Virus record (IMG/VR): IMGVR_UViG_3300045988_156049
Source of the DNA: a virus
Length of the DNA stretch: 58,717 bases
Direction: 5' to 3' (one strand)
A program made the position numbers and the translations under genes. The notes beneath the pieces were generated by a model. It ran no database searches and was not told the DNA's origin. It saw nothing but the letters and a program-made list of their open reading frames with translations. Below, in pieces: positions 2,133 to 55,996 of this stretch; within the stretch, counting starts at the first letter, position 1; the number at the start of each line of letters is the position of its first letter.

Positions 2133-2633
2133 ATGGCACTTCCAGGTATAGGTAGCATGATAGGCGCAGGTATGCAAGCGGCTGCCAGTATTTATGGTGG
2201 TATTAAGAACGCAAAAGCGTACAAGGATGTTATTGGAAACACCAAACAACAGATGCTGGAGAATCAGGACTGGTTCGACAGACGTTATAATGAAGATGCG
2301 ACTCAGCGAGCCGATGCGCAAGCATTGCTCACACAGACGGCAAACAGCATAAGGGAGCGAAACAAACAAGCCGCCGGAGTCGCCGCAGTGATGGGCGGAA
2401 CAGATGAAAGTGTTGCAGCGGCAAAGGCTGCAAATAATGAGGCTCTTGTGGATGCTACCAGCAAGATCGCTGCTGCTGCCGACCAAAGGAAGGACAGCAT
2501 AGAAAGTCAATATCTTTCGAAAAATGCGGACTTGAATTCACAATTGAACAATATGACATTGAAAAAAGCGGAAGTTACAGCCAACGCCGTAAAGGGTGTG
2601 GCTGACGCAGCCGCCAGTATGGCGTCAATTTAA
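2133..2633 (+). CDS. Hypothetical protein, internal virion/ejection protein candidate
   Basis: 166 aa with a Gly/Ala-rich N-terminus (MALPGIGSMIGAGMQAAASIYGG) and an Ala/Gln-rich remainder. It is the first gene of the block leading into the giant gene. The role is a positional guess. Confidence 0.6.
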   Translation: MALPGIGSMIGAGMQAAASIYGGIKNAKAYKDVIGNTKQQMLENQDWFDRRYNEDATQRADAQALLTQTANSIRERNKQAAGVAAVMGGTDESVAAAKAANNEALVDATSKIAAAADQRKDSIESQYLSKNADLNSQLNNMTLKKAEVTANAVKGVADAAASMASI

Positions 2634-15900: not shown

Positions 15901-18900
15901 CGGAGAAATCGTCGTCGTCCTTCCGAATGCAACCGGCATTGAAGATGTCCAGGCTACAATCCTGCACGAGGCTGTGGGACACAAGGGCTTGCGTGAACTC
16001 GTGGGAGATGACAGATTCGATGACTTCCTGGACAAGGTGTATGCGGCTGCGTCAGTAAACACCAGAAGAGAGATTGTCAATCTCGCCAGGCGGAGTCATT
16101 GGGATTTCAGACTTGCAACAGAAGAGTATATTGCAGGCTTGGCGGAGAATGGTTTTGCCGGGCGTGAGAATCGTACATTGTTCGAGAAGATAAAAGACTT
16201 CTTCCGCGATATGTTGAGCAGGGCAAAGATTGCCCTGGGCGTCAATATCGGGGACAATGAACTGCGCTATATGCTGTGGCGGACATATCAAATGCGGACC
16301 TCGCGCGGCATTCTTGCCAAAGCCGAAGATATATCCATGCAACAGTCAATGAAGGTCGGAAACTTCAGGAATGAGGTCCCCGAAGAATCCTCAAGACTCC
16401 GCTTCCGGAATTCTAGTAATGGAAGACGTAAAAGCTTGGCACGTGATATCTACGAAGAGAAGACTCGCATAGTGGACAGGAAAGGGCAAAAGACTGATAC
16501 CGCAAATCTTATGCGCCGTCTGAAGGAGGCCTATGTGGACAGTATGCAGTCTCTGAAATACTTGCAGGATGCGGTTGCGGAAGAAACCGGGAAGCCTGTG
16601 GAAGACTTCGAGAACGCATACCTGGCGGAAAACACAATGAGTTCTAAGAATAAGGCTCAGACAGACATCTATCTGAACAAGTTCTTTAATCCGATAAAGG
16701 ATGCAATACGTGAACTGCAAAAAAAAAGTGTCGAATATAATGACATCGTGCGTTACCTCATGGCTAAACATGGACTTGAACGCAATGTGGTCTTCTCGAA
16801 GCGGGATGCGCAGAGAGCGGGTGCTGTGTGGGACGGCATTGTGAGACGTGATTACTCTGGTTTGACGGAACTTACCAGACAGGAAAGCGACACTTCTACT
16901 CCAAGTATTCGAGAGATTACTTCCCGAGCAAATGAAATAGTGCATAATTTCGAAAAAGAATATTACGTTGATGAACTTTGGAGTGCAATCAATAATGCTA
17001 CAAAGGAAACACTCAGGACGTCGTATGTTGATGGATTGCTCACAAAGGATAATTATGAGATGGTTCGTTCGATGTTTGACTATTATATTCCGCTCCGTGG
17101 CTGGAATGAAAATGTTGCTTCTGTAGAATATGATTACCTGAGCGATTCAAAGCCTAAGACCTCGCAAATCGTAAAGGCGGCTACCGGAAGAACCACCATT
17201 TCCGATGATCCGATAGCAACTATCGCATATATGGGACAGAGCGCAATCATTCAAGGTAACAGAAATATGATGAAGCAGAAACTGTTGAATCTTGCGTTGA
17301 ACCATAAGACAGGTTTGCTCACTGTGAATCGTCAGTGGGAGGTCCAGGACCCGGTAACTGGCGAATGGATTACGAGGAATCCTGTCATACCTGTAGACGC
17401 GACGCCGGAAGAAGTTGCTGATATAGTTTCCCAGTTTGAGACTGACATGAAGGCGGCGGAAAAGAATGGGACGGCTCGCATATCTCGTGGGAAACTCGAT
17501 ACCGGTAAACATATTACGGCATATGAGGGACAAGAACATGTCGTCAAAGTTAAGCGCGGCGGCATAGAGTATTGCATATATCTCAATGGAAATCCGCGTG
17601 CTGCTCAGGCTGTCAATGGCATGACCAATCCTGATGCTGTGGACAGCTGGCTTATCCGTAAGGCTCGTGTTATTAAGAACTTTATGGCCAGGATGTTCAC
17701 TTCCCAAAATCCAGCCTTCATTATTTCAAACCTCAGTCGTGATGTGATATTTGCGGGTACTGCTGTGTTTGCAAAAGAGGATTCAAAATATACTGCTCTA
17801 TATACGAAGAATATTGCCAGGGCATTGGCGAAAGGGCAATTGATCGGCCTGGTGCACAGATTCGAGACAGGCAGACTTGATGACTCCAAAGACATTGACA
17901 GATATTTCGGAGAGTTCATACGCAATGGCGGAGAAACAGGTTTCACACAACTCAATACCGTCGATGATTTCAAGCGAGACCTTAACAGGTTTGCGAAAGA
18001 GATGACGCAAGGACAAGTGATGAAAGTTTCTTCAAAAGTGTGGAACGGAATCTGGGATGGTGTTGAGTTCATGAATAGGTGTGCCGAGGATGCGACAAGG
18101 TTTTCGGTGTACATGACATCTCGACAGATGGGACGTAGTGTGGAGAGGAGTATCAGTGATGCTAAAGAGATTACGGTAAACTTCAATAGAAAAGGTAGTG
18201 GCGGTTTTGGTGCACGAGTTATGAACTTTGCCTATATCTTCTTTAATGCGGCTATACAGGCTCTTGCAAACGCAGGAAAGATTTTCTACGAGCATCCGGT
18301 TAAATCTGCCGTGGCTCTTAGTACTTTCTCTGTCGCAGGATTTCTTGCTCCACTTCTGGCACAAGCTATTATATCGGCATTCGGTGGTGATGACGATGCC
18401 TATTGGGATTTGCCTGAGTGGGTTCGTAGAAATAATTTTGTTTTCTATGTCCCATGGAGTGACAATAAGTTCCTGATTATACCGATATCCCAAGAATTAC
18501 GTCCGTTCTACGCTCTTGGAGAGGTGGCAATGTCTGTGTTGATGGGAAAAGAAGATGTCCTCGAAGGATTAAGGAGTGTAGGCGGTAGCTTTATGGATCT
18601 TCTCCCTGTTGATTTTATGGGCAATGGAAATAATCTTGCCGTAAGTTTGACTCCGACTGTCGCTCAGCCGTTTGCGCAATTGGTAGCAAACTCTGATTAC
18701 TTTGGAAAACCAATTTATAGACGCAATGACTATAATCGGTTGGATCCAGCCTGGACGAAGGCATACAAGGGGACGAGTTCAATGCTTATCAATGCATCTA
18801 AATGGCTGAATGAAGTAACCGGAGGAGACGATGTCAAGAGAGGATGGATTGATCCTGTTAACAATCCTGCCGTCATTGAACATTTGTTTGAGAGTTATCT

Positions 18901-19345
18901 GGGCGGTGTCGGAAAGACCATTAACAAGACGGCCAAAACTATTTCGATGATATGGAATCCGGAAATGCGCGATATCCGTAATGTGCCTATCGTAAGCACG
19001 TTCGTTCAAGAATCAGACGATGAGAGAGTCGCCGGCAGTCAATTGAATCGTGAGTATGGTAAAGCAATGGAAGAATTCCGAGAAACAGAACATACGATTT
19101 CTGGATATAAGAGAAAGGCAAGGATGGGCTCGATGGAATATGCTGATAAACTATCTGATTTCATGAATACTCCTGAATTCAAGAAGTATTCGAAGATGAA
19201 AGGATATGCATCGTCTATCGCGAAATTGAGGACGGCACTGAAGAAAACGGAAGAACTCAATGGGGATGTGATGGATGCGGAATACTTGCAGGAGATGCTT
19301 CGGGAATTGAAACAGCAGATGTTGGAGGAACTGAAAGAAGATTAG
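3992..19345 (+). CDS. Giant polyvalent multi-domain protein (5117 aa), probable virion-packaged and injected effector/ejection protein
   Basis: Uninterrupted 15,354-nt ORF with an ATG start. It holds a serial array of enzyme-like motifs (ParB-like GNNR, PPase-like, MNT, HEWWH and HEYTH zincins, two VVYHG ART-like modules) and a C-terminal module with two TM helices. It is flanked by internal-protein candidates and the portal. Confidence 0.9.
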   Translation: MPKYRVNGDTYNIPEEKVSAFEKRYPNATVDIYDNDGAEYSLPVSEKVNFQKQFKNWSYTAPAAPSAPSAEKIDSVEQPGPVMPNPAMENRNWEVQMGNGHSRATVEKPEPVDVPIPQRPEGLEPSDDGTAAPSGDVRSYLENANRQQVANLSRDINSRLDEAQTKSRDIYMKEQEDARKGGFLSTLAHAIAASGHNPEGGSGGMSDAQQRTLQGANSELQSEISKLEAAKNAMSNAEEIIAEADKSVQEGKFPGFFKGVARGFGDKLFDVNTWDMGVSDTKNSIELLKALRKYDEGKPLSESEQMLLDAKSVELATNAYFGSYIGRGYKAGAVTAQSLPFMLEMAVNPASTLGESTQSMLARYALSRFAKKGATRAAQKFATKAAGAAGRALGDIAGSAVMAGTSGAVRVAGDAIDRHVGDIETDMDGQGQTVFAGHDPESLGKSIAKAFTSTAIENHSEMLGEYFAPALGIVSKLGRKGMEKFGLKNVVDFVDDVSATDAAKLIADFQKRTKWHGTIGEYAEEVAGNIENAILVGDSTLDSSDDTGVFNLDQNIDTFLGVALMGGVFSTIRTAAWRTPKYRARKEMEKARAKAKKKFGDQEWQDIEDRLAEAGDEGMSSVLSEVIIGERNPEREKAILDYAKSIKIYEGTLKGDEKHRELSSPEMTDLESSYENGYTLATPQEVHDAKIMFEYQQARLQQALGMSSIDIETLMLGNEMGKLTEEQKSVALDYLNAEATFDGVIDRVRDDIDNRISSVNAAIDASTNSDTGKLQPARLVDDRAVHIISGVVRLTPDGTMVDIHNSEDYIIIRDDKTGKIESVSPSQIVGVDAEIDPESEKKAAESQIRGQIGQQKADIIDGVLQFNPGDVYTLTNEQGQSFTVQVAADEQGVVDNGDGTINVILNEDIDANTGLPRISQMSKEQIENMAEATNMARLQQYEQQKLDVDARQYEEDSTGRTPENPFKINDRISFNDVGSGSVKHGIVESELTDDGKYEIAIENDGSIESVSYLSPEDLSNMQAQLVQSVEEQEAPEIEQNPVKIEQNPVKIEQPEQPQVSAFERIPKDEQGNPIYEQAETPDLAWDAIVEQTDGDEAMAQTVTDGMVADKETALKKVEKAKSKGGATIAEKIAAEKERKAAIEEAKANLAVWKRIAQTARRRKDAEESEKRRIAEEQAAIRKAEEEKLRAEREEAERIKREALNGVPDISDDTPQDARARGYRRVSGHKVDRQEPIPHLQGNDIAVKFSDDVIVPGRVAVIEAETLQPSHIQGTRNPAHFIDESQPKERTDDASVLSARKIARNIRPEEITSSITAYTGAPTTNVRGEVIQGNNRSDALRLIWEGDKEQSAIYKQYLMDHAADFGLNADEISAMNHPVLVNMLDVDDAKAITLGQFVAQDTESGGTERIKPKNAVQKMGADMRTFADMLLASSDDETSFAGLVDRNGDEVLAWMNRRGFITPTQYKSAFDSKGGITAEAKNDLKGIMYQSIFTGGNIRLEEMFNAMPAKAQRAILATAFRDNESPNTERMVKEIQNSIRAYNALSQGEDFANAKNWKEARLAVESWKMQYAMDDVTGESYLPAEKFSNFALHLATMYKGESQSLIQSTFNHLYDLIQGTQEETLFEKPDNTPRTLAQAILETLNFEYDGQQRSNVLAGDSTASQEREQGSTGTPAAGERVEGGEQPADNTGGTENESGSGEVREKIAEEGSKVNTNPSDAQKEAGNYRMGHVKIDGMDVTIENPKGSIRKGRDADGKEWQSEMHNDYGYIRGTKAVDNDHIDIFLSDDPEHGNVYVIDQVDPKTGKFDESKVMYGFSSEQEARDAYLSNYEEGWKGLGKITEVTKEEFKKWIDSSTRKTKPFSEYASVKAAKPQKEKPVQGIEGYSRDEIKGIVADHINDVMRDNDIHAEIIGMDIHGSRNRHDARPDSDLDVVVEYRGDIREDDMFNALNGEEDALSINGIKVDINPIRKEETGDLQGYMKQSEEYDREKSEHAKQKGSSTTSEIKNNKSGKIEDYGEQISGARKDMLRDLAKSVQNTSLESLISLPFSKAFKKPNLSKAVEEGALRDKDARFAQAAIAAFLSTKKPVAGTKDERRRQRWGEKTNVEKWAEKAYTGIKILQELFDADERVRDKVIEAAVADKYVGVAEAKAQQQRIGELNHREFNGTSYPLNLIALYNEVFDRLGYPAGQNTKIPVGRIVCSSTFDSYSLRGVNGEDWIYPSRSLKSFEDVVDELVYLIKVANADETADHPIENFKIRGINPKVETTGYRVLAAKNLTTAITRGNRFAVDEIFPTREAALKRIEELKAKGLECSEPLEKRETVGYEKYQISFAHPITREFIPLEKEYGSKEDAIAAPEAEHEELNRLANEAIAAATKKSGESVEKSYFHITHYYDKGSDGKYHWYYGVALDDKYGPKKTAFNTMPFFLAERLNSREEAQKQIDANKERWESLVKDVVRQRSNFVYFSGDNETRNGEDYRNGKDVTAEEFANKFGFRGVQFGNWANQADRQAALNNAYDSFMDMSKIIGVSPKAMSLNGELGVAFGSRGSGAASAHYEPGEVVINLTKTRGAGSLAHEWWHALDNYFSRAANVKLGYVTSDKRLPMREEMRKAFNDLVDDVEKSDYHTRSMDKGSSYWGTREEETARLFAEWIADEMAKRGELNNFLAGRYDAEDSYARMGYVFYKAIQKLKPEGEMMTFEEFRKTPMALKGFSYPTRAELEILGKDVRNIFGEVQERTDETTGNVALFQMVDKILSDNSPENRLAYEAVSQMLSNAGIPVELLSDQAMREMAINATMLDTVLPEDESSFKGTVISSIDGAKILNNLDKAIDRYNENPDNRPWTFIGDLASALGSSDKDKSSQYATFETKNGQVVTIRVSNHNATVSNFDNAGESNGISIVISRKPNEGMTNDGDAHIVEFFYPDKALNKAEGKPLVEILKSIKQSLYSGEYKDTTGLAQREEVNAKESVEFLREPDGTVYGATVGGKIYLNRERLNPNTPIHEYTHLWFSALKDANPELYKRGVELMKQLPIWEEVKTDSNYANLSGDDAIASECLSRLVGDKGTEKLTELAKKAMVRGDIIGTANRISLIEDFKDWLKKFWTWVRDSFAPWTKEEASRVSVDNIQNMVLSDLAKGVNPLARQAESDADIRFSIVKDPKLIEELDKGAKVKVYRAMQLIDGKLYPPMASKINGEFVRPIELGKWEQADEHPELIDKNGRFNLNKGNGKGLKAAYNPYIHTSRTPLNDQFSEAQSRPNIVTVEVEIPKSELSSGYQADKAKDSVGEMEWKAGIVQGQLTGKRKVILSRWDKPIRIVPDSEVANVIVNDMFKGRTITMPSNVVTPSLRAELEKLGVPFVQTDNTGHIVGGQYDGKYYSKVYGNGALAGNAKGKRMESETDRIVREAKENGTYMKAPNGKPTNLNERQWAQVRTRAFKKWFGDWEKAAEESPSTAKTNSSKIVDENGEPKVVYHGSPYRFFRFDKTKLGQSTGADSAKEGFFFTDNKELAELFSRYSLESLPVSDVEQLVKDRLLNMSENELNDAYEVYRNDSPDYLDYADETDSPNDRDYLEIRGFLLDGVSEEESKREYIQDSIESKIEGGYFSDMEEVEEELSSIGIEFGNNEQVFLNIESPLVDEVERDYFHNGEDVSPMTPVLQNAKRMGSDGVVFTGIVESGQKGAANQYVAFEPNQIKSATDNVGTFDVGQEDIRYRDSGQMDAEYMFAIESGDMRKAGRMVEAAFRKAFPGSKVKNVVYHGVAVSEDGRQFPYNSIREGHFTDDEGFAEYYAGSDGYVYKVFLDIESPLEQDFRGQNSDFARDAEGNDVSTRTFARRVKDSNGRYDGAIITNVDEYGDGIEADGVGNYDGSVTDYIPVSADQIYSAEPVVYDDNGQVIPLSRRFENGNPDIRYKHDETGNGSRTSQDVEAAAIKLAESLGEKVRLVRDVNEIENQNKKVQENQRKSKGWFNTGTGEIVVVLPNATGIEDVQATILHEAVGHKGLRELVGDDRFDDFLDKVYAAASVNTRREIVNLARRSHWDFRLATEEYIAGLAENGFAGRENRTLFEKIKDFFRDMLSRAKIALGVNIGDNELRYMLWRTYQMRTSRGILAKAEDISMQQSMKVGNFRNEVPEESSRLRFRNSSNGRRKSLARDIYEEKTRIVDRKGQKTDTANLMRRLKEAYVDSMQSLKYLQDAVAEETGKPVEDFENAYLAENTMSSKNKAQTDIYLNKFFNPIKDAIRELQKKSVEYNDIVRYLMAKHGLERNVVFSKRDAQRAGAVWDGIVRRDYSGLTELTRQESDTSTPSIREITSRANEIVHNFEKEYYVDELWSAINNATKETLRTSYVDGLLTKDNYEMVRSMFDYYIPLRGWNENVASVEYDYLSDSKPKTSQIVKAATGRTTISDDPIATIAYMGQSAIIQGNRNMMKQKLLNLALNHKTGLLTVNRQWEVQDPVTGEWITRNPVIPVDATPEEVADIVSQFETDMKAAEKNGTARISRGKLDTGKHITAYEGQEHVVKVKRGGIEYCIYLNGNPRAAQAVNGMTNPDAVDSWLIRKARVIKNFMARMFTSQNPAFIISNLSRDVIFAGTAVFAKEDSKYTALYTKNIARALAKGQLIGLVHRFETGRLDDSKDIDRYFGEFIRNGGETGFTQLNTVDDFKRDLNRFAKEMTQGQVMKVSSKVWNGIWDGVEFMNRCAEDATRFSVYMTSRQMGRSVERSISDAKEITVNFNRKGSGGFGARVMNFAYIFFNAAIQALANAGKIFYEHPVKSAVALSTFSVAGFLAPLLAQAIISAFGGDDDAYWDLPEWVRRNNFVFYVPWSDNKFLIIPISQELRPFYALGEVAMSVLMGKEDVLEGLRSVGGSFMDLLPVDFMGNGNNLAVSLTPTVAQPFAQLVANSDYFGKPIYRRNDYNRLDPAWTKAYKGTSSMLINASKWLNEVTGGDDVKRGWIDPVNNPAVIEHLFESYLGGVGKTINKTAKTISMIWNPEMRDIRNVPIVSTFVQESDDERVAGSQLNREYGKAMEEFRETEHTISGYKRKARMGSMEYADKLSDFMNTPEFKKYSKMKGYASSIAKLRTALKKTEELNGDVMDAEYLQEMLRELKQQMLEELKED
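7098..7149 (+). repeat. 21-bp in-frame tandem repeat (about 2.5 copies) in a linker of the giant protein
   Basis: AAATCGAACAGAATCCTGTCA occurs at 7098-7118 and 7119-7139, with a partial copy to 7149. It encodes (E)IEQNPVK IEQNPVK IEQ. Confidence 0.9.
7740..8130 (+). other. ParB/Srx-like domain within the giant protein
   Basis: VIEAETLQPSH ... TNVRGEVIQGNNRSDALRLIW. The GNNR motif sits at about 7984-7995 and resembles the ParB-fold G-x-x-R phosphate-binding motif. Confidence 0.4.
9160..9560 (+). other. Family-I inorganic-pyrophosphatase-like domain within the giant protein
   Basis: VTIENPKGSIRKGRDADGKEW...HNDYGYIRGTKAVDNDHIDIFLSDD parallels the PPase pattern E-x-P-K-G-S..K-Y-E ... Y-G-F-I-P-x-T..D-G-D-P-x-D-V. 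Confidence 0.6.
9640..9915 (+). other. Minimal nucleotidyltransferase (MNT, pol-beta superfamily) domain within the giant protein
   Basis: IIGMDIHGSRNRHDARPDSDLDVVVEY fits the hG[GS]-x9-13-D-h-D-h signature. Confidence 0.7.
11440..11990 (+). other. Zincin-like metallopeptidase module 1 (HEWWH) within the giant protein
   Basis: FGFRGVQFGNWANQADRQAALNNAYDSFMDM...AHYEPGEVVINLTKTRGAGSLAHEWWHALDNYF. HExxH is at 11720-11734. It resembles the MPTase module recurrent in polyvalent proteins. Confidence 0.6.
12910..13100 (+). other. Zincin-like module 2 (HEYTH) within the giant protein
   Basis: GGKIYLNRERLNPNTPIHEYTHLWFSAL. HExxH is at 12998-13012. Confidence 0.45.
14390..15125 (+). other. ADP-ribosyltransferase-like module 1 (polyvalent-protein ART type) with a large acidic insert
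   Basis: PKVVYHGSPYRFFRFDK...KEGFFFTDNKELAELFS ... QVFLNIESPL ... NQYVAFEPNQIKSATDNVGTFD. Confidence 0.45.
15235..15720 (+). other. ADP-ribosyltransferase-like module 2 (tandem paralogue of module 1)
   Basis: VKNVVYHGVAVSEDG...EGHFTDDEGFAEYYAG...YVYKVFLDIESPLEQDF...DGAIITNVDEYG...ADQIYSAEP. It shows the same YHG / F(T) / (F)L(N/D)IESPL landmarks as module 1. Confidence 0.45.
15890..16150 (+). other. Conserved HEAVGH module within the giant protein (function unknown)
   Basis: NTGTGEIVVVLPNATGIEDVQATILHEAVGHKGLRELVG. The spacing is H-E-x3-H, so it is not a canonical HExxH. Confidence 0.3.
16380..19345 (+). other. C-terminal approx. 1000-aa module of the giant protein with a hydrophobic helix pair (about 18221-18385)
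   Basis: MNFAYIFFNAAIQALANAG and AVALSTFSVAGFLAPLLAQAIISAFGG are TM-like helices. YIPLRGW (about 17086-17106) is reminiscent of the PLxRFG-type C-terminal module reported for polyvalent proteins. Confidence 0.4.
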
Positions 19346-19432: not shown

Positions 19433-21427
19433 ATGTCTGAAGAAAGTATTAGACGGATGAGCCGCGTAAAACCGCGGAAAGAAAATGAAATGGATACTGT
19501 CGCCTTCTCTAAAAGTTTTGGCGACAGCAAGCGTGCTTTCGATATTGTTCTGGAAGCGCAGCAGCATTATGATAACATGGCTCGTTTCCGTAAGGATAGA
19601 GAAAGGTGCAAACGATATACTTACGGAGACCAATGGAAAGACATAATTACGGTTGACGGGGAGGATATGACGGAGGAGGAATACATCAAAAGCGAAGGAC
19701 AAGTCCCTTTGAAGAACAATCTTATAAGACGACTTGTAAGAAATGTCCTTGGTGTGTACCGGAGTCAATCCAAAGAACCGACATGTACGGCGAGGGATCG
19801 AGATGAACAGAAACTAGGCGAGACGATGAGTACGGTGCTTCAATGCAACATGCAGCGGAATCGTATGAATGAGGTCTATCCTGAAACACTTGAGGAATTC
19901 CTTATCAGCGGTCTGGCCGTCCATCATAAAAGCTTCGGATGGAATTCTGATAAAGGTCTGGACTGTTGGACTCGTGTCGTTTCTCCGGACATGTTCTTTA
20001 TGGATGCATATTCGCGTGATATACGAGGATGGGACGTAAACTTCATCGGAGAGATTCATGATATTGATTTCAACACACTGGTAGGGCAGTTTGCTCATTC
20101 TAAACAGGACTACCAGCGTCTTGCTGAAATTTATTCTTCTGCTCATGCCAGAAATAAAGGATATGTTGCGACATTCTGTAATGAGTTCGGTTATTATCGT
20201 AGGGCGAATATTGATTTTCTCGTCCCGCAGGATATTACCAGGTGTCGTGTTATTGAAGTTTGGCGTCGTGAAAGCAAGCCTAGATACCGTTGCCATGATT
20301 ACAGTACAGGAACTATCTTTATAATTGACGTAGAGGATTATCACGAGCTTGTCTTGGAAGAAAACGCCAAGCGGATTGCCAGGGGAACGTTAAACGGAAT
20401 TCCAGCAGATGACGTAGCGATTATTGACGCTGAATGGTTCCTCGACAAATATTGGTACTATTACTATCTCACGCCGTTTGGTGATATCCTGCAAGAGGGG
20501 GAGACCCCTTATAAGCACGGCAGTCATCCATACGTGTTCAAGGCATACCCTTTCATTGATGGCGAGATTCATAGCTTCGTTTCTGACTTCATTGACCAGC
20601 AGAGATATGTCAACAGGCTTATTACAATGTACGATTGGATTATGCGTGCAAGTGCGAAAGGCTTGTTGATCTTTCCGGAAGAGTGTATGCCTGACGACTG
20701 GAGCATTGAGGATGTGGCAGAAGAATGGCATAGGTTTAATGGCGTGATAGTGGTGAAAACCAAGAATAACCCATCCGGGACGTTGCCGAAACAAGTTGCG
20801 GCCAATAGCACGAATATAGGAATATCAGAGCTGCTGAATTTACAGCTGAAGTTCTTTGAAGACATCAGTGGAGTAAACGGTGCTCTCCAGGGTAAACCGG
20901 GATATTCTGGGATGAGCGCCAGTCTCTATGCGCAACAGGCCCAGAATTCTACAACTTCATTGTTGGACCTTCTTGAAAGGTTCAGCGCATTTGTGATAGA
21001 TGCGGCATATAAGGATGTCAAGAATATTCAACAGTTCTATGACAGCAAGAGATATGTGAACATCGCCGGCAAAAGCGGAGCTGAGGTGGTTTATGATCCA
21101 GATAAATTCAATGACGTAGAATTTGACCTGAGCGTTATGGAAAGCACCACGTCACCGGTATATCGCCAGTTGGCTAATGACTTCCTCATGGAGATATGGA
21201 AGTCCGGACAAATTAGTCTTGAACAGCTTCTTGAACATGGAGATTTCCAATTCGCAGACAATCTTCTTCAGGACATAAACGTACAGAAGGAGGAATTGTC
21301 CAAGGGAAATATTCCTGAAGGGATTTCGCCTCAGATGCAAAAACAGGTTCAGCAAGGTGCCAATATGGGTGCGGTGAATACCTTGCATGACGCTATTACG
21401 GCAGAGGCAATGAGAAGTAACGCATAA
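19433..21427 (+). CDS. Portal protein (candidate)
   Basis: 664 aa. N-terminal CKRYTYGDQWKD...PLKNNLIRRLVRNVLGVY resembles the Y-x-G-x-Q-W / N-x-I-x-x-x-V pattern of portals. It has an acidic C-terminus and converges on the terminase operon. Confidence 0.6.
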   Translation: MSEESIRRMSRVKPRKENEMDTVAFSKSFGDSKRAFDIVLEAQQHYDNMARFRKDRERCKRYTYGDQWKDIITVDGEDMTEEEYIKSEGQVPLKNNLIRRLVRNVLGVYRSQSKEPTCTARDRDEQKLGETMSTVLQCNMQRNRMNEVYPETLEEFLISGLAVHHKSFGWNSDKGLDCWTRVVSPDMFFMDAYSRDIRGWDVNFIGEIHDIDFNTLVGQFAHSKQDYQRLAEIYSSAHARNKGYVATFCNEFGYYRRANIDFLVPQDITRCRVIEVWRRESKPRYRCHDYSTGTIFIIDVEDYHELVLEENAKRIARGTLNGIPADDVAIIDAEWFLDKYWYYYYLTPFGDILQEGETPYKHGSHPYVFKAYPFIDGEIHSFVSDFIDQQRYVNRLITMYDWIMRASAKGLLIFPEECMPDDWSIEDVAEEWHRFNGVIVVKTKNNPSGTLPKQVAANSTNIGISELLNLQLKFFEDISGVNGALQGKPGYSGMSASLYAQQAQNSTTSLLDLLERFSAFVIDAAYKDVKNIQQFYDSKRYVNIAGKSGAEVVYDPDKFNDVEFDLSVMESTTSPVYRQLANDFLMEIWKSGQISLEQLLEHGDFQFADNLLQDINVQKEELSKGNIPEGISPQMQKQVQQGANMGAVNTLHDAITAEAMRSNA

Positions 21428-21480: not shown

Positions 21481-21897
21481 TTATCGTTTGGCGTTTGGAT
21501 TGCGACGTACTACTGAACTGAAACTGATACGCTTGAAGAAATCGTTGCGCCTTCTTGTCCGTTCTCTCTTGTCCCGCCTTTTACGTCTTTCATACCACTC
21601 GTAATACATGTGTAGTTTTACGTCTCGCAGGAAATCGTCAATTGCATTCTTCTCCCGTCTGTCAGGGGTGTAATAAAAACACTTCATGGTCACGTCATCC
21701 ATCTTGACGTTGGAGTCAATGTAATGCTTCATGCGTAATTGCCTGAAGTTTTTCCTGTCCGTGACTATGAGCTTGACGCGGCCTCTTGCATTCGGCATCA
21801 CATAATAACGGTTTCCGTTCTTGGCATGAGCCCTGTCGGCTCTGCTGACTGCTTCACGGTATATCAGCCATGCATAGAAACTTGAAAAAATGTTCAT
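21481..21897 (-). CDS. Hypothetical protein with a very basic C-terminus
   Basis: 138 aa with an ATG start. It is the last gene of the leftward packaging operon. The C-terminus reads RRKRRDKRERTRRRNDF. Confidence 0.6.
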   Translation of the reverse strand: MNIFSSFYAWLIYREAVSRADRAHAKNGNRYYVMPNARGRVKLIVTDRKNFRQLRMKHYIDSNVKMDDVTMKCFYYTPDRREKNAIDDFLRDVKLHMYYEWYERRKRRDKRERTRRRNDFFKRISFSSVVRRNPNAKR

Positions 21898-21909: not shown

Positions 21910-24033
21910 TTAAGCGATTATAGCCTCTGTCGGATTATTCCAACGCGATGACTTGTGATTCGGTTGCTGTTCTATTTCTATAATTCTAGGAATTTCCATT
22001 TCTGTGAAACTGATAAGAAGACCTATGCCTCGGGTCATAAGAAGGTCGTCATGCATACCTAATATTGCACCCCAGGCTCCGTTAGGTTTTTTCTCGTATG
22101 TGAGATATTCGTCCAGACATCTTCCATCTCTTTCTGTATATAGACCTTCCCGAATGACCTTGACAAGTATTGATACTATTTTCGGTTTTGTGCTGACATT
22201 AGTATGAAAGCCGTATTTCCGGGGCATCTGTTTCCTTATATCTTCGTCACTTTGTGGACGGGCATATAGATTCGGATAGGCATCTTTGACAAGGTTGAGT
22301 ATATATAGTGACTGATCACCGTCAACTTGCCGTTCCGCATCGTGCGTCTCCAGAGTGTTGCTCTCAATAACGAGTAGGGCGTTATCATAATAGGCTGCAA
22401 TTTGAGCCGCTTTCCATGCGAGCAAGTCCATATCTATATGTCCATACCATTGCGCTACAACTGACGGCTTGCCGCCTTCCATTTGATAAAGCCTGTCAAA
22501 TACTACAATACAAGACCAGTCTGATTTCTTTGCGCGTCCTCCGATATCAACTACAACCAAGTACCTGTCTACTATTTTGATTTTTCTGTCAATTTCCGGC
22601 TTGCTCCAGATCCATAGCCTTCCTTGCTTGTCATCAATGAATCGAATGTTTGCAAATGCTTCTTTTCCATCATCTCCGTTCGCGCAGACTTCGCCAATGA
22701 ATCTTGGGGGCTTACAACTGCAACGTAGTTTTTCTACCTTGTATCTGTCGAATACACGCGCCCCTGAATGAGAAAACGCTTCTATGTCATCTGATGGAAA
22801 TTCCGAAGCCATATCTTCGTCGGAATCATGTGCGGCACGTTCAATGATATACCAGTTGATTGCGTCAAGTGATGCCCCGATAGTCCAGAGATACCACAGG
22901 TACTGTCCGGAAACCTCTCTGTCGGAGTTTACATTAGTGTTTTCACGATTGGACCATAGTTTGACAGCGAAGTCCCGAAGCTCTTTGGGATCTGATATGT
23001 ATAATGAGTACTGCGGTATTTGCCACCAGGCTACGAACATTGAGTCAAATTGGGATTTGCCGGTTTTTGCGGCTTCGTATTCGCGGTGAAAAAAATTGCC
23101 GGAGCCATTCGCCGTTGACTCGTAGATTATCATTGTCAATGGCCTATATAACACACCGGAACAGGCGGAACGGACAATATCCTGAGGCCGTTTCCCCTCG
23201 GTGCGTTTCCATAGACCTACTTCAGAACAGTGCACAAGGTTGTAGTCGCCACCACGCGCAGAGTCAGGCCGTTCTGCTGTGCCGATCTTTATCTTACATT
23301 TCCTTTGCGGGACGCGATGTATATTGCCGCTTTTTCCTACAGATTTGAATTTGATTTCCTTTTCGCTGTAATTCTCGGATATCGAGTGAAGATATTTCAC
23401 CGGATATCTGCTGATCATTCTGTCGAACATGTCCTGGATTTCATCAGACGCTGTCCCTTGATGTGCGACGATTAGAGAGTTGAGTCCTACTTTATGTACG
23501 AGTTGGAGCCAAGCCATGTACAACTGTATGCAAGTAGAACCTCCCCATTGCCTGGCTTTCAGAAGAATCAGTCTGATAGGTTTCCCTGCAAGCCTCATTG
23601 ACTCTAATCGCTCAATTAGCTTTCTCTGAGGATTGTTAAGCCTGAAAAGTGTATCTTCTCCTCCACCTTTGTTCTTGATGTACGCAAGAGTTGCCGCCCA
23701 AAAAGGATAATCGAATTTGATTCTTACTCGGACGACTTGTTCAATAACTTTTTGCTTTTCATTTTCGCTATAACAAGATTTCAATGAGTCTGTTATGAAT
23801 TTCCGTATGGAACCGGCCTTGACTAGTTTTTGAATCAATGGTACTGATTTCATTTCTTTTGGAATCCACTGCTCGGAAAAGGGGAAATCAGTAATCTTGA
23901 TTCTTACTCTAGATTTGAAGAATGTGGAGCCTTCACCGGTAACGGGATTGAATGTCTGTTCAATTCCGGAACGGCGTTTACTGTTCTCTTCTATGATCGC
24001 TGCGACGGCTCTGCTTTCTTCTTCTTTTGTCAT
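21910..24033 (-). CDS. terL: Terminase large subunit
   Basis: Walker A-like LILLKARQWGGSTCIQ and a C-terminal nuclease-like VVVDIGGRAKKSDWSCIVVFD. The track ORF starts at GTG 24060. The ATG at 24033 (MTKEEES) lies 1 nt after the rhomboid stop. Confidence 0.85.
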   Translation of the reverse strand: MTKEEESRAVAAIIEENSKRRSGIEQTFNPVTGEGSTFFKSRVRIKITDFPFSEQWIPKEMKSVPLIQKLVKAGSIRKFITDSLKSCYSENEKQKVIEQVVRVRIKFDYPFWAATLAYIKNKGGGEDTLFRLNNPQRKLIERLESMRLAGKPIRLILLKARQWGGSTCIQLYMAWLQLVHKVGLNSLIVAHQGTASDEIQDMFDRMISRYPVKYLHSISENYSEKEIKFKSVGKSGNIHRVPQRKCKIKIGTAERPDSARGGDYNLVHCSEVGLWKRTEGKRPQDIVRSACSGVLYRPLTMIIYESTANGSGNFFHREYEAAKTGKSQFDSMFVAWWQIPQYSLYISDPKELRDFAVKLWSNRENTNVNSDREVSGQYLWYLWTIGASLDAINWYIIERAAHDSDEDMASEFPSDDIEAFSHSGARVFDRYKVEKLRCSCKPPRFIGEVCANGDDGKEAFANIRFIDDKQGRLWIWSKPEIDRKIKIVDRYLVVVDIGGRAKKSDWSCIVVFDRLYQMEGGKPSVVAQWYGHIDMDLLAWKAAQIAAYYDNALLVIESNTLETHDAERQVDGDQSLYILNLVKDAYPNLYARPQSDEDIRKQMPRKYGFHTNVSTKPKIVSILVKVIREGLYTERDGRCLDEYLTYEKKPNGAWGAILGMHDDLLMTRGIGLLISFTEMEIPRIIEIEQQPNHKSSRWNNPTEAIIA

Positions 24034-24034
24034 G

Positions 24035-24535
24035 TCAAACCTTTTTATTGAGGAATGCACCTATTAGTCCGAACATATAGCAATACACGTGTAACCATAC
24101 GTCGATTGTATGTGGGAAAATGAAACCTATAAGTATTGTAGTGCAGATGCAAATCTGCCAATATGCTTTTTCCTTAACATTTAAGGAAACTCGTCCCAAC
24201 AAGTAGTAACAGACGCCGGAAAAACCAATTGTAAAATGAGGCTCCGAATATAGTTGTGACAATAAACCTACAGGATATGTTATTGCAGTTGCATATCCTG
24301 CCAGCAAGGATATCAATGATACGTCATATATGAATACTATTGATACGAGGCACCAGCAATTCATCATGGCATGAAGAAATGAGGTGTGAAAAAATGGATA
24401 AAAAAAACGGCTTGCTATCCCGCCTCCTGGATGTAGAGATATTGCCGTTATTTCAGGATTTGTAAAACACAGACAGACTGCGAGTAAGGAATATACTAGA
24501 CTTATACCCTGAGCCACTCTCTTGCTTCGTACCAT
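24035..24535 (-). CDS. Rhomboid-family intramembrane serine protease (compact, 6 TM, 166 aa)
   Basis: HTSFLHAMMN gives H-x4-H-x3-N. GFSGVCYYLLG gives GxSG. LHVYCYMFGLIG gives the catalytic His plus the Gly motif. There are six hydrophobic segments. Confidence 0.8.
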   Translation of the reverse strand: MVRSKRVAQGISLVYSLLAVCLCFTNPEITAISLHPGGGIASRFFYPFFHTSFLHAMMNCWCLVSIVFIYDVSLISLLAGYATAITYPVGLLSQLYSEPHFTIGFSGVCYYLLGRVSLNVKEKAYWQICICTTILIGFIFPHTIDVWLHVYCYMFGLIGAFLNKKV

Positions 24536-24927
24536 TGGTTTTTAATTTTTAATATGATCATGTGAGCGGAATTCGGCGTTAGATAGAATCGTGGTGCTTG
24601 CGAATTGACAACATCGAAGGTTAAACTATAGATTGAGTCATTCGGGCGTGTCTTTTTCAAATCCATGACTCTTTTATGAATCTCGTTAAACATTGCGCGT
24701 TTGTTGGGACGCATGTTGTCTAAATCATTCCCTTTAATTATCAGCGAAACGACTTTGGCAGCTCGCAGTTCACTGACCCAGAATCTTTTCGAAGGCATTT
24801 CTACAATTATTTCATACACATCTTTCATGGGACGCCCGTTCCGATGTGCCATTACTGTTCTGAATGCACGCATCAAGTCGCAGTTGCGCTCTTTCTCGTA
24901 TTCGAAATATGAACCGGTGTGTTTCAT
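24502..24927 (-). CDS. Hypothetical protein; small terminase subunit candidate by position only
   Basis: 141 aa and the first gene of the leftward packaging operon. No motif was recognised. Confidence 0.4.
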   Translation of the reverse strand: MKHTGSYFEYEKERNCDLMRAFRTVMAHRNGRPMKDVYEIIVEMPSKRFWVSELRAAKVVSLIIKGNDLDNMRPNKRAMFNEIHKRVMDLKKTRPNDSIYSLTFDVVNSQAPRFYLTPNSAHMIILKIKNQWYEAREWLRV

Positions 24928-25048
24928 TCTGTCTCTGTCGCTCAGTTTCTATACAAATTTACCCTTGCAGGTAAATAGATAACATTTGACTTTTCTTGAG
25001 AGGATGTATTTTCGCAATAAGAACTAAAGCATAAAATATATATTACGT

Positions 25049-25858
25049 ATGGAAAATACTGATAATAAGAAAGTTATCTCGAAAAGAGAATTAGCTCTTC
25101 AGCGTCTTAAATCAAAATATCCGGAAGATAATTTTGATGATGATGAGGCCGTTTTTGGTCGAATTAATGGTGATTACGATGAATACGATAAGAAGATAAA
25201 GGCACAAGATGAGAGAATCGCCGGTTATGAAGCTGATGAAAAGTCTCTTGGGGATATGTTTTCGACAGATCCTCGTTCAGCAAAGTTCCTGTCCAACTGG
25301 AAAAAAGGTGGAGATCCGGCAATTGCCCTGATTCAGGAATTTGGGAATGATATTGAGGAAATATTGCATGATCCGGAAAGACAGCAGGAGGTTGCAGATG
25401 CGAACAAGGCATTTGCTGAAAGAGTTGCCAAGAACAAAGAGTATGAGGAAGAATATAAAGTCAACCTCGATCAGTCAATGCAAAATATTGAAGACCTTAA
25501 GGCTAAAGGCTTTACTGAGGCAGAGATTGATGATATCATGCAGGCCACGATCTCAATTGTAAGTGATGGGTTGAGAGGTATATTCTCACCAGAGACTCTG
25601 ATGATGGTCGGCAAGGCAATCAGTCATGATAGAGATGTGACCAATGCCTCAGAGGAAGGAGAAATCCGTGGACGCAACGCGAAGATTGAAGAAAAATTGA
25701 AAAAGCCTAAAAAGAGTGATGGTATAGTGTCACTTGGCGGCAACAGTGGTGGTGCAGGTCTGGCTGACAGAAAATCTCTTGGCGCATTTGACAGATATGG
25801 AGATGGCTCCAGAACCATTTGGGAAAAAGGCGGAGAGAAAAGAATTCAACATAGATAA
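25049..25858 (+). CDS. Scaffolding protein (candidate)
   Basis: 269 aa, acidic and helical/coiled-coil in character, immediately upstream of the capsid gene. Confidence 0.5.
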   Translation: MENTDNKKVISKRELALQRLKSKYPEDNFDDDEAVFGRINGDYDEYDKKIKAQDERIAGYEADEKSLGDMFSTDPRSAKFLSNWKKGGDPAIALIQEFGNDIEEILHDPERQQEVADANKAFAERVAKNKEYEEEYKVNLDQSMQNIEDLKAKGFTEAEIDDIMQATISIVSDGLRGIFSPETLMMVGKAISHDRDVTNASEEGEIRGRNAKIEEKLKKPKKSDGIVSLGGNSGGAGLADRKSLGAFDRYGDGSRTIWEKGGEKRIQHR

Positions 25859-25888: not shown

Positions 25889-27313
25889 ATGAAGACAATC
25901 AACAAGTTCGGAAAATTTATCCTGTCAACGCTGCTGTCTGTGCTCTGTTTCGCATTGGGCGCGCAGTCAGGTGTGATGATGGCAGCAGCAAGTGAACTTC
26001 CTGATGCAGGTGTTACTACTTCAGGAAATCCTGGTGATGGCAGTGGAGGTATCTCCACTGAAAGTGATGGCCGCGAGAATGGCGATCCTGAGTTCTATTC
26101 AAAGGAAATTGACAAGCGTATTACAAAGATTCGTCCGATGGCTACGCCGGTGGATCAGATCAGCCGATATGCCAAATCAATTTCTACTGATAGCTTCGAG
26201 GTTAAATACTATTCAGTTGGTACTAGACCTATAGTATGCACTACTTCCGGTGAAGTGACTAAACAGACATCTGGTGAATCTGTTTCTCTTCCGGTTGATG
26301 ATGCGAACATGTTTACTATTGATGACACTATTCGTGTCGTCGGGGTGAAGGGCGAGTTTGATTACACTGGAGCGGCTTATAATAAGAGTGATGAGAATAC
26401 TCCGGATCTTCAGCTCAAAGTCTGTGGAAAAGACGCCAGCACATCAATGCCTACCGTTTATGCCGTTAACGGCTTGAAAGATTCTACCGGAAGGGCTATT
26501 TGGGTCCCGGCGATTCCGAGCGGCACTAAACTGGTTCGAATGGGCAAAGCTTGTGCTGAACTTGAAGTTCAGACGGGGCGTTTTAATAACATACCGACAG
26601 CCGAGGTTCAGTATTGTCAGAATTTTATGATCCAGATTGAGCAGTCTACTTTTGACAGGATTGCAAAGAAAGAGGTTGACTGGAGTTTTTCTGACATGGA
26701 GGAAGACGGAATCTATGACATGAAGCTCGCAAAGGAAAACACTCACCTCTGGGGTGTAAAGAACGTTATTTCTCATTCAACAAGTGATGGTATGAAAACC
26801 TGGTTCACCGGAGGCCTTTGGTGGATGGCAGGGAAAGACATTGAGGTGGGAACCTATAATAATGATACCAAAACAACTACCATTACGGACGATAACCTGG
26901 TGGATATCGCAAAGGACCTTTTTGTCGGAACCGGTATCGGTAACAAAAAGAAGGTGCTGTTCTGCGGCTCGGATATGCTCGCTGCCTTCTCAAAAATTAA
27001 GAGCGAAAAGTTCAGGCTTAAAGATACAGTTGAGGTTTGGAATCTAAAATTCAAATCCTGGGATACGGACTTCGGTGAGTTGCTGACAATCCATCACGAG
27101 CTGTTCGATGCTAATGGAATGAGCGATTGCGGATTTGCCCTTGATCCGGAATATTTGACTAAAGCGGTGCATGTGTCTTGGTCAAGAAATATTCTTGATT
27201 TGAAGAAAGCAGGAGTCAGAAACACGAATGCTGTAGTTATGCAGGAGGTCTCTTGTCTTTACTTGAGGTATGCTAAAGCTCATGCGAGAATGAGATTGGC
27301 TCATGCAGCATAG
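25889..27313 (+). CDS. Major capsid protein (candidate) with an N-terminal signal/TM-like extension
   Basis: 474 aa between the scaffold candidate and a strong terminator. The core from EIDKRITKIRPMATPVDQISRY onward looks capsid-like (..NYCQNF-type YCQNFMIQIEQSTF, THLWGVK). The first approx. 70 aa are MKTINKFGKFILSTLLSVLCFALGAQSGVMMAAAS followed by a G/S/D-rich linker. Confidence 0.6.
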   Translation: MKTINKFGKFILSTLLSVLCFALGAQSGVMMAAASELPDAGVTTSGNPGDGSGGISTESDGRENGDPEFYSKEIDKRITKIRPMATPVDQISRYAKSISTDSFEVKYYSVGTRPIVCTTSGEVTKQTSGESVSLPVDDANMFTIDDTIRVVGVKGEFDYTGAAYNKSDENTPDLQLKVCGKDASTSMPTVYAVNGLKDSTGRAIWVPAIPSGTKLVRMGKACAELEVQTGRFNNIPTAEVQYCQNFMIQIEQSTFDRIAKKEVDWSFSDMEEDGIYDMKLAKENTHLWGVKNVISHSTSDGMKTWFTGGLWWMAGKDIEVGTYNNDTKTTTITDDNLVDIAKDLFVGTGIGNKKKVLFCGSDMLAAFSKIKSEKFRLKDTVEVWNLKFKSWDTDFGELLTIHHELFDANGMSDCGFALDPEYLTKAVHVSWSRNILDLKKAGVRNTNAVVMQEVSCLYLRYAKAHARMRLAHAA

Positions 27314-29893: not shown

Positions 29894-30340
29894 ATGGCAT
29901 TACAATTAGGTTCAAATATAAAATATGAAGGAAAACTCCCTAATTTTGTTAGGGATTCCTTCAAAACATTGGCAGATATGAAGGCATTTCCTGAATACTC
30001 AATGGATTCAGGACACATATCTTTTTGTGAAGAAGACAGGAACACGTATAAATATGATGCCAATAACTCAGTAGATGCTGTAACTGGAAAGTGGAGATTG
30101 TTCGGCGGAGGAATTACTTACCACGAGGTTCCGGCTCTTACAGAGGATTACATGATAACTTCTAATCCGTCACTTACTAATGAGGTGATTTATTACATTA
30201 CAATAGGAGAGAATGCACATAAAGTATTCGGAGATTCTACTATCAAATGGCAAGATGGCAAAAGTCCCGTTTCAGAAGCAAACTCTGTAATAGTAGTAAG
30301 TGTTTTGAACAATTTAGCGGTTTGGGGGATTTTCAAATGA
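29894..30340 (+). CDS. Hypothetical structural protein
   Basis: 148 aa, with an ATGA overlap onto the following small ORF. Confidence 0.55.
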   Translation: MALQLGSNIKYEGKLPNFVRDSFKTLADMKAFPEYSMDSGHISFCEEDRNTYKYDANNSVDAVTGKWRLFGGGITYHEVPALTEDYMITSNPSLTNEVIYYITIGENAHKVFGDSTIKWQDGKSPVSEANSVIVVSVLNNLAVWGIFK

Positions 30341-35105: not shown

Positions 35106-35639
35106 ATGAAAATACAACTAGTGACATTTCTTTCCGAACTGGTGGCATTTGCGCTACTTGCCGTGCTCGTGACATCCTGCGGCAGTTCACGACATGCAGT
35201 AACCAGTATCGAGACACACGACAGCACCAAGGTGGAAATCAGGACGGAGATAATCGAGACTATTGATACGGTGTACGTGGAACTTCCTAAACAGTCGGAG
35301 ACAGTGGCGGTGAAGGACACGTCCTCGCATCTGGAGAATGACCTTGCTGTATCGGATGCAAGCATAGACTCGCTCGGATTCCTGCACCATTCTCTGAAGA
35401 CGAAACAGCGCGGTCGTCTTCCGGTTCCGAGCAAAAACACAAAGGAGAGGAGGGACAGCATCGTTTATCGAGACAAGTGCGTCTATATCGAAAAGCCTGT
35501 CTATGTAGAGGCTGAATTGAATGCATGGCAGCGCTTCAGGCTTCGCGGGTTCTGGATTCTCGCGGCCGCCGTTGCAGCCATTGGGTTCTGGAAATTCCGG
35601 AGGCCGATTCTCGGTTTGCTTACGAAATTGATTTCATAA
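35106..35639 (+). CDS. Unimolecular spanin (u-spanin) candidate
   Basis: It has an N-terminal lipoprotein signal with lipobox VTSC (LLAVLVTSCGSS) and a C-terminal TM helix (GFWILAAAVAAIGFWKF). This is the T1 gp11-like architecture, and it is the last gene of the lysis cassette. Confidence 0.55.
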   Translation: MKIQLVTFLSELVAFALLAVLVTSCGSSRHAVTSIETHDSTKVEIRTEIIETIDTVYVELPKQSETVAVKDTSSHLENDLAVSDASIDSLGFLHHSLKTKQRGRLPVPSKNTKERRDSIVYRDKCVYIEKPVYVEAELNAWQRFRLRGFWILAAAVAAIGFWKFRRPILGLLTKLIS

Positions 35640-55037: not shown

Positions 55038-55065
55038 ACTGTTTGTGTTGTTTTTATAATCTAGA

Positions 55066-55558: not shown

Positions 55559-55590
55559 ATTTTGCTATATTTTTTATAATATTTTTACAA

Positions 55591-55968: not shown

Positions 55969-55996
55969 CGCGTGCATGCGGTGCAAGAATTAATTC

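Follow-up and report, generated by a model that had tools for sequence, protein, structure and literature searches.

A mini-rhomboid protease gene in the head and packaging module of Bacteroidales podophages that carry an anchor-like capsid protein N-terminus

We analyzed a stretch of viral DNA of 58,717 nucleotides (nt), the IMG/VR record IMGVR_UViG_3300045988_156049 (hereafter the window), which belongs to a temperate, SU10-like podophage, and focused on a gene lying directly upstream of that for the large terminase subunit, TerL. Sequence comparison and structure prediction indicate that this gene encodes a minimal rhomboid intramembrane serine protease, predicted to be catalytically active. 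It is a core head and packaging gene of an abundant lineage of gut phages, in which it is paired with an N-terminus of the major capsid protein (MCP) that resembles a membrane anchor.

A minimal rhomboid in the head and packaging module

The gene was characterized with Pfam, AlphaFold2, Foldseek, hhalign, and a conservation analysis of its homologues.

24035-24535, minus strand: mini-rhomboid intramembrane serine protease, 166 amino acids (aa), six transmembrane (TM) helices

Its open reading frame (ORF) starts with the ATG at 24535, overlaps the upstream 141-aa ORF (24502-24927) by 34 nt, and ends with a TGA at 24035-24037, after which a single base precedes the ATG of TerL at 24033. The rhomboid and TerL belong to one gene string and are translationally coupled. 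All of these junctions had been given in a preliminary description of this DNA, made from the sequence alone, as had three rhomboid motifs, which are present in the order it reported: H50-TSFL-H55-AMM-N59, G104-F-S106-G107-VCYYLLG, and L148-H149-VYCYMFGLIG. S106 is located at the start of TM4, H149 within TM6, and H50-x4-H55-x3-N59 in TM2, and R43 sits in a shortened L1 loop.

A comparison with the Rhomboid profile, proposed as a check in the preliminary description, gave a match to Pfam PF01694 (E = 1.5e-5, 25.6 bits, profile positions 8-136 of 143) above the gathering cut-off of 22.6 bits, and most homologues carry a precomputed PF01694 match. The AlphaFold2 model, built on 66 homologues, is composed of six long helices and short L1 helices (predicted local distance difference test score, pLDDT, 93.8; predicted TM-score, pTM, 0.89), in agreement with the six hydrophobic segments noted in the preliminary description. 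When this model was compared to the PDB with Foldseek, the best 34 matches were all GlpG of E. coli or H. influenzae (probability 1.00, TM-score 0.56-0.69), so that the comparison with GlpG suggested in the preliminary description found the GlpG fold, with a TM-score of up to 0.69; iRhoms ranked next.

Neither the single sequence, which retrieved nothing relevant among the PDB sequences, nor the 66-sequence profile, which gave no match at E ≤ 1 in the same set, led to a homologue of known structure, and PHROGs holds no family for this protein. The link to GlpG therefore needed Pfam, hhalign, and the fold comparison. In the hhalign alignment, H50, H55, and N59 correspond to GlpG H145, H150, and N154, S106 to S201, Y110 to Y205, and H149 to H254; taken alone, this alignment is weak (E = 3.5e-4, probability 37%), and the GlpG sequence used for it (UniProt P09391) was entered by hand.

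The predicted catalytic residues are almost invariant. Among 368 non-redundant homologues, S106 is retained in 366, H149 in 362, H50 in 367, H55 in 365, N59 in 367, and G104 in 365. The two sequences without S106 are truncated fragments and the six without H149 are truncated or frameshifted, leaving zero substitutions of the catalytic Ser and His in full-length members. Since these two residues are unsubstituted, and the TM2 His/His/Asn and G104 are equally fixed, the protein is predicted to be an active enzyme rather than a pseudoprotease, which agrees with the compact rhomboid with intact catalytic residues first recognized by inspection. A non-proteolytic role, either as a membrane dock for terminase and procapsid or as a chaperone of the iRhom/Derlin type, would suit the tight coupling to TerL translation, and inactive rhomboid-fold proteins with scaffolding roles are known. 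We consider such a role highly improbable, as pseudoproteases characteristically lose the Ser/His and TM2 H/H/N residues that are kept here.

The overall architecture is that of GlpG (MEROPS family S54), with the six-TM fold, a G-x-S-G serine that opens TM4 and precedes a Tyr/Phe, a TM6 His, the TM2 H-x4-H-x3-N, an L1 Arg, and a predicted N-in/C-in topology. This topology was deduced from the tail charges of 345 members (+1.7 for the N-tail and +2.6 for the C-tail), which place both tails in the cytoplasm and let the active site open to the periplasm, as in GlpG. However, the phage rhomboid is just 15-20% identical to GlpG, has no cytoplasmic N-domain, and is phage-encoded, within a head and packaging module. 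Its L1 loop is only ~24 residues long, and the Arg in it (R43, kept in 338 of the 368 homologues) is not preceded by the Trp of the WR motif. This motif is common among rhomboids but, in our view, not strictly defining. In TM6, GlpG has A-H-x2-G-x3-G, whereas the phage protein has H-x2-C-Y-x2-G; the position +3 after H149 is Cys, Ser, Ala, or Gly, and G156, a small residue for TM4-TM6 packing, is found in 346/368 homologues. In the cultured phage BF1-TP2, the serine motif reads G-A-S-A.

At 90% identity, the family comprises 592 clusters or more. When 1.84 billion representatives were searched exhaustively with a profile, only 475 clusters at 50% identity were returned, and the proteins in the best 150 of these 475 are mostly 145-190 aa long. 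On these grounds, we regard the family as a distinct clade of mini-rhomboids. It is carried by Bacteroidales metagenome-assembled genomes, by contigs from the chromosomes of two isolates, Phocaeicola massiliensis DSM 17679 and Bacteroides congonensis, and by three cultured temperate phages, BS-TP4, BKO1-TP3, and BF1-TP2. The lineage is thus one of widespread temperate Bacteroidales podophages, including three cultured phages and two isolate prophages.

The rhomboid gene occupies the same slot throughout this lineage. In the window, the module is organized as follows.

24502-24927, minus strand: 141-aa protein upstream of the rhomboid, in the small-terminase position (phrog_27246, function unknown; all-alpha AlphaFold2 model)
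21910-24033, minus strand: large terminase subunit TerL, 707 aa (PHROG terminase matches, tblastn)
21481-21897, minus strand: conserved 138-aa protein p138 without TM segment, last gene of the rhomboid string (phrog_22658)
24928-25048, no strand: divergent intergenic region between the rhomboid/terminase string and the scaffold-MCP string, defined from the sequence
25049-25858, plus strand: scaffolding-protein candidate, 269 aa, directly upstream of the MCP (phrog_22323)
25889-27313, plus strand: MCP, 474 aa (Pfam SU10_MCP, E = 2e-30, residues 69-468; phrog_26635)
19433-21427, plus strand: portal protein, which bounds the module (Pfam P22_portal, E = 1e-41)

The MCP and scaffold genes lie on one strand and the string small protein-rhomboid-TerL-p138 on the opposite one, followed by the portal gene, and this order was found in 45/45 of the loci first collected. 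For an unbiased estimate of occurrence, loci were then retrieved without use of the rhomboid.

Loci retrieved via the MCP core: rhomboid in 102/106
Loci retrieved via the TerL of a divergent branch: rhomboid in 23/25

Five of the six loci without a rhomboid are cut at contig ends. The last one, L066 (positions 1-657 of IMGVR_UViG_3300029968_000038), is the sole locus with an interrupted rhomboid, which has a normal start with MVRK… and TM1. The similarity of this contig to all relatives breaks off right where the rhomboid begins, with 656 nt left to the contig end, so that L066 is probably an assembly chimera or a degraded element, and we rejected it as evidence for a loss of the rhomboid. Phage BF1-TP2 had likewise appeared to lack the gene by tblastn, which was ruled out by its annotation and by hhalign: a 155-aa rhomboid, beyond the reach of tblastn, lies in the same slot (probability 95%). 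A distant member of the family, close to the weak end of the matches listed, occupies this slot as well.

These relatives were found only through protein-level searches, nothing being retrieved when the 6-kb region was compared with the phage collection by megablast. The first MCP-based scan of viral contigs reached close relatives only, and seeds from the divergent TerL branch were needed to find the boundary of the lineage. A deep sub-clade (L160-L181, hereafter the L045-like clade) has MCPs of 570-600 aa, ~100 aa longer than that of the window, and rhomboids ~28% identical to the window's.

Because it lies in the same slot in every informative relative, the rhomboid gene is a core gene and not a moron. 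The synteny survey proposed in the preliminary description therefore bore out its view that the gene is coupled to the packaging genes rather than being a moron at the genome edge.

The capsid protein N-terminus and the candidate substrates

The MCP of the window starts with an extension that precedes the SU10/HK97-type core, which begins at residue 69 according to Pfam.

25889-26092, plus strand: N-terminal extension of the MCP, residues 1-68, proposed rhomboid substrate (alignments and statistics on 92 sequences)

The extension consists of a basic tip (MKTINKFGK), an uncharged stretch of TM length (residues 10-35, nt 25916-25993), the motif G24-AQS-G28-V-M-M31-A32-AAS-ELPDAG (nt 25958-26011), and an acidic Gly/Thr/Asp linker. 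The N-termini of representative MCPs are given below.

Window: MKTINKFGK-FILSTLLSVLCFAL-GAQSGVMMAAASELPDAG
BS-TP4: MKKTMSFFCR-ITLMILAFVT-GASSGVMMAEASNLPDAG
BF1-TP2 (MCP 46% identical): MRSKSFFNY-LGGLVLTVLAVML-GATTGCGMCMAVP
L152: …LVLVAVSALF-GGGVAMAAAT
L045-like clade (570-600-aa MCPs): …HKMSVLSSLLVVAAALL-GADLGFAMAVDP

In the L045-like clade, the N-terminal layout of the MCPs is unchanged and the motif is a variant, GADLGFAMAVDP.

Across 92 unique sequences, the tip carries a charge of +2 to +5 (median +3), the uncharged stretch has a median length of 26 residues, and the 35 residues after it have a median charge of -5. The hydrophobic core itself varies (20-50% column identity), whereas the motif that follows is 80-99% conserved. 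A basic tip, a TM-length stretch, and G-x-x-x-G-Φ-x-M-A are kept in every MCP of the lineage, even below 30% identity. The frame of the extension is open in all complete loci and its hydrophobicity is kept despite the sequence drift, which indicates that it is translated. It resembles a signal anchor or a signal peptide, and the junction between LGA and QSG in the window recalls the 'Q-rule' of Bacteroidetes signal peptidase. Such an export-like N-terminus on the capsid protein of a tailed phage is a paradox, whatever the rhomboid does.

Our preferred reading, put forward tentatively, is that the rhomboid may process a membrane-tethered capsid precursor. The N-terminal 35 residues of this precursor would form a membrane anchor, made of the basic tip and a ~26-residue uncharged helix, the distal third of which would bear the small-residue motif G-x-x-x-G-Φ-x-M-A. 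The rhomboid would cut inside this motif or right behind it, and the cut would free the capsid protein, or a tethered procapsid, from the inner membrane when the terminase is made, with the rhomboid standing in for the prohead maturation protease. We infer all three steps, namely the membrane insertion of the extension, its cleavage by the rhomboid, and the control of assembly. We are more doubtful that the rhomboid is the head-maturation protease itself, whose cleavage at this motif would free capsid subunits or procapsids for packaging. Proheads of T4 assemble on the inner membrane and leave it after proteolysis, which offers a loose precedent.

The argument that the rhomboid removes the MCP anchor, as the equivalent of a prohead protease, is built on the TM proteins shared within the lineage, on the other proteases that could be recognized, on the outgroups, and on the rhomboid recognition motif. 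Compared over their whole genomes, the window and BF1-TP2 share, besides the rhomboid, a single protein with a predicted TM in both, the MCP. The holin, the spanin candidate, and the M48 peptidase of the window have no detectable homologue in BF1-TP2, which speaks against them as conserved substrates; among the substrates proposed in the preliminary description, the MCP N-terminus is thus the only one conserved with the rhomboid throughout the lineage. No prohead protease was recognized in the eight proteins of the head module that were scanned with Pfam and PHROG; for the downstream BACON proteins and the 148-aa ORF (29894-30340), the scan covered Pfam alone.

The outgroups lack both the rhomboid and the MCP N-terminal extension. 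SU10, the namesake of the MCP family, is without a rhomboid, and its 352-aa MCP starts with MANPTLFVSY. Outside the lineage, the closest relatives by TerL are MW202692 and 17 viral contigs like it, none of which has a rhomboid or a capsid-sized ORF with an N-terminal TM. As for recognition, the V/F-x-M-A in the MCP motif provides a hydrophobic P4 and a small P1 (Ala), and fits two of the three positions of the rhomboid recognition motif reported by Strisovsky et al. 2009.

Several observations weigh against cleavage of the MCP by the rhomboid. The main objection is topology, as the charge pattern is the wrong one: by the positive-inside rule, the basic tip and the acidic flank (~-5) predict an N-in/C-out MCP, which would therefore have its 400-aa capsid body in the periplasm. 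An N-in substrate is the opposite of the canonical rhomboid substrates TatA, Spitz, HybA, and the GlyGly-CTERM proteins, and the action of AarA on TatA, cited as a precedent in the preliminary description, differs on this very point. In addition, the P2' residue is Ala, Asp, or Pro rather than a large hydrophobic residue. The co-occurrence of the rhomboid and the MCP extension is also statistically weak, because both probably go back to a single evolutionary gain and the loci are not independent.

The same topology would favor a rhomboid directed at host inner-membrane proteins and unrelated to the MCP N-terminus. Possible purposes would include takeover of the host, superinfection exclusion, membrane remodelling before lysis, or clearing of orphan membrane proteins. 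Bacterial rhomboids of known role act on cellular membrane proteins, such as GlpG on orphan respiratory subunits and YqgP on MgtE, and what ties the present rhomboid to a phage substrate is indirect throughout. Yet an accessory function of this kind would be expected to be moron-like, variable in position and patchy in occurrence, whereas the rhomboid slot is fixed across deep divergence, and the conserved anchor and motif of the MCP would be left unexplained. We regard host targets as unlikely.

Two other phage proteins have the canonical orientation of a rhomboid substrate, unlike that predicted for the MCP.

2133-2633, plus strand: p166, a 166-aa protein and secondary substrate candidate, defined from the sequence
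35106-35639, plus strand: u-spanin candidate with a lipobox (LVTSC) and a C-terminal TM, GFWILAAAVAAIGFW-KFRRP

Gly/Ala-rich and weakly hydrophobic, the N-terminus of p166 bears no charge, and K25, K28, and K31 come next (MALPGIGSMIGAGMQAAASIYGGIKNAKAYK). As the uncharged N-terminus precedes the Lys residues, an N-out/C-in orientation, as in TatA, is predicted, and the rhomboid might trim p166, a probable internal or ejection protein, as AarA trims TatA; the protein also has a homologue in BF1-TP2 (40% identity). However, membrane insertion of p166 is uncertain, because the mean hydropathy of its N-terminus is only ~1.0, and its gene lies more than 20 kb from that of the rhomboid. For the u-spanin candidate, the C-terminal TM is small-residue-rich and oriented N-out/C-in, and cleavage of this protein or of another lysis component might let the rhomboid time lysis. 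Here, the rhomboid is universal whereas the spanin, holin, and M48 peptidase lack a counterpart in BF1-TP2, and cleavage of its anchor would inactivate the spanin. A substrate of this kind, that is, another N-out/C-in phage membrane protein such as p166, the u-spanin candidate, or a lysis component, seems quite unlikely to us.

The MCP N-terminus could also be shaped by something other than the rhomboid. The segment is a plausible Sec signal peptide, which a host enzyme could remove at a signal peptidase I site between …T/L-G-A and S/Q. Alternatively, the conserved Met before the conserved Ala could serve as an internal start, giving a cytoplasmic MCP without cleavage. Under either mechanism, the rhomboid would act as a signal-peptide peptidase that clears leftover, abundant hydrophobic peptides or long-form precursors from the membrane. 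The n-h-c layout and the small residues at -1 and -3 (LGA before QSG in the window) are those of a signal peptide, and the very high copy number of the MCP would produce plentiful leftover peptides. On the other hand, the capsid body would still have to engage the export machinery, and the uncharged stretch, with its median of 26 aa, exceeds a typical signal-peptide core. The most conserved residues (G-V-x-M-A-x-A-S-x-L-P-D-A-G) moreover lie past the putative site, which would be unexpected if the signal peptide alone mattered. We give this explanation a slim chance.

The pairing of the rhomboid with the MCP is directly testable, because the gene of the likeliest substrate is a close neighbor and both lysogens and cultured phages are available.

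Neighboring genes and the rest of the window

The identification of TerL was supported by tblastn, which matched 396 phage records; among them are Stx-converting and Vibrio phages whose annotated TerL is ~25% identical across more than 80% of the length. The p138 gene lies downstream of TerL in nearly all loci. On the other strand, the 269-aa protein is a scaffold candidate from its position and composition, and its position is kept in the loci covering it.

Where a locus reaches far enough upstream, the 141-aa protein is encoded ahead of the rhomboid. Its ORF is the first of the string, yet the rhomboid intervenes before TerL. The preliminary description had named it as a candidate small terminase subunit (TerS); this assignment came from position alone and found no backing in Pfam, PDB sequence, or PDB fold searches. 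Nothing significant was found for it in Pfam with 12 family members scanned, the best match being that of one member to Sf6_terminase (E = 0.077), and a profile and sequence search of the PDB gave no match. Its AlphaFold2 model (pLDDT 92.5) matched none of the PDB folds (best E = 0.3, TM-score ~0.2). This model displays an apparent internal repeat, in which a helix-helix-short strand-helix unit occurs twice, with the motifs RFWVS and KFYLTP. The protein may represent a new DNA-recognition fold for packaging.

Suitably placed for the 141-aa ORF, 27-34 nt upstream of it, the minus strand carries a -7 motif of the Bacteroides type, TAAATTTG, at 24954-24961. Over the whole window such motifs are not enriched (40 found vs 37 expected), so that this site is weak and uninformative evidence.

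The remaining features of the window are listed here.

297-1619: tyrosine integrase
3992-19345, plus strand: polyvalent protein of 5117 aa, encoded by a single ORF
55064-55150, minus strand: tRNA-Val, just upstream of the HTH_3/M48 pair
55552-57064, plus strand: HTH_3 protein (138 aa) directly upstream of a TM-anchored M48 metallopeptidase, followed by PIN and DUF4325 genes

Further genes encode a weak match to the SU10 adaptor, BACON-domain tail proteins, a holin, an M15 endolysin, RecT, and a PD-(D/E)XK/FtsK protein. Near-identical copies of the 5117-aa polyvalent protein carry the Pfam domains ART-PolyVal, ddrB-ParB, InPase, and LPD1/5/14/38, and relatives of 5100-6000 aa add helicase and MuF_C domains; the protein is probably an injected anti-defence or ejection protein. 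The N-terminus of p166 is glycine-zipper-like (MALPGIGSMIGAGMQAAASIYGGI), with the lysines next to it, and its gene is upstream of those of a 447-aa protein and of the giant ORF. We consider p166 to be probably a membrane-active internal virion protein. In the lysogeny region, the pair of HTH_3 and M48 genes resembles a repressor-protease switch of the ImmR/ImmA type, but with an M48 enzyme.

Related systems, existing records, and significance

The proposed reaction has partial counterparts in known systems. As in the AarA/TatA system of Providencia stuartii, a rhomboid would trim a short N-terminal piece off a protein with a single N-terminal TM and thereby activate it. However, TatA has an uncharged, periplasm-facing N-terminus and its TM stays on the product, whereas the MCP has a basic tip, predicted to be cytoplasmic, and its whole anchor would be removed. 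With HK97 gp4 and T4 gp21, the phage rhomboid would share the removal of an N-terminal part of the capsid protein, proposed for the rhomboid, and a protease gene located inside the head cluster. These two enzymes, of the herpesvirus-assemblin fold, are soluble and packaged in the procapsid, and their fold and chemistry are unrelated to those of rhomboids. The rhomboid is not homologous to HK97 gp4, T4 gp21, or the ClpP-type prohead proteases, and would be a functional analogue at most. In the rhombosortase/GlyGly-CTERM system, a specialized rhomboid is likewise paired with a small-residue-rich sorting signal beside a TM, the two being conserved together, but that signal is located at the C-terminus and oriented N-out/C-in, and a cellular enzyme acts on secreted substrates.

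Other viral rhomboids are known only by annotation, in the Stenotrophomonas phages DLP3 (gp93) and DLP5, in uncultured Caudoviricetes ('GlpG-like'), and in giant viruses, and some of the virus rhomboid entries of BFVD are small (155-160 aa). In DLP3 and DLP5, the rhomboid is listed only as a conserved-domain match. DLP3 gp93 differs from the present gene in its location, among hypothetical genes, three genes upstream of a cluster for lipopolysaccharide modification (PIG-L deacetylase, WcaG, WecE), and outside a head module.

Members of the present family already bear database labels. BS-TP4 gp8 is a 'rhomboid domain-containing protein' and BF1-TP2 gp59 a 'rhomboid family intramembrane serine protease', and copies in Caudoviricetes metagenome-assembled genomes are labelled 'Rhomboid family' or 'GlpG-like protein'. 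Other labels are misleading: the rhomboid of BKO1-TP3 is annotated as 'glycoside hydrolase', and in all three of the phages with GenBank accessions PQ571277, PQ571269, and PQ571263 (L001, L002, and L046) TerL is called 'tail spike protein'. We also rejected the 'YajC' label of BS-TP4 gp5, a 73-aa protein of the same gene string, which is soluble and has no hydrophobic segment.

The paper reporting the isolation of BS-TP4, BKO1-TP3, and BF1-TP2 never mentions the rhomboid (PMC12694917). Full-text literature searches turned up no work on phage rhomboids located in head modules, nor any on TM-anchored capsid proteins in tailed phages. The statement in the preliminary description that no phage rhomboid had been characterized therefore holds insofar as no paper was found that discusses the family, but not at the level of database labels, which exist. 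The rhomboid is known at the annotation level, and its fixed morphogenesis slot and the MCP N-terminus are undescribed in the papers found.

The phages concerned are common in the gut, and one cultured member, BS-TP4, was detected in 31% of 930 gut viromes of healthy donors in China (PMC12694917). Should the capsid link prove wrong, there would still be a membrane protease fixed in a packaging string across hundreds of genomes, an arrangement described in no paper that we found. To our knowledge, natural substrates are known for very few bacterial rhomboids, and their physiological roles are largely open.

If cleavage of the MCP is confirmed, tailed-phage morphogenesis would for the first time involve an intramembrane protease. 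A bacterial-type rhomboid whose natural substrate is encoded so near, ~1.4 kb away, would likewise be a rarity, and the MCP would possibly be a natural type II (N-in) rhomboid substrate. For the biology of these phages, an obligatory anchor- or signal-like capsid N-terminus would imply membrane-tethered head assembly with intramembrane release, or another step that has so far gone unrecognized.

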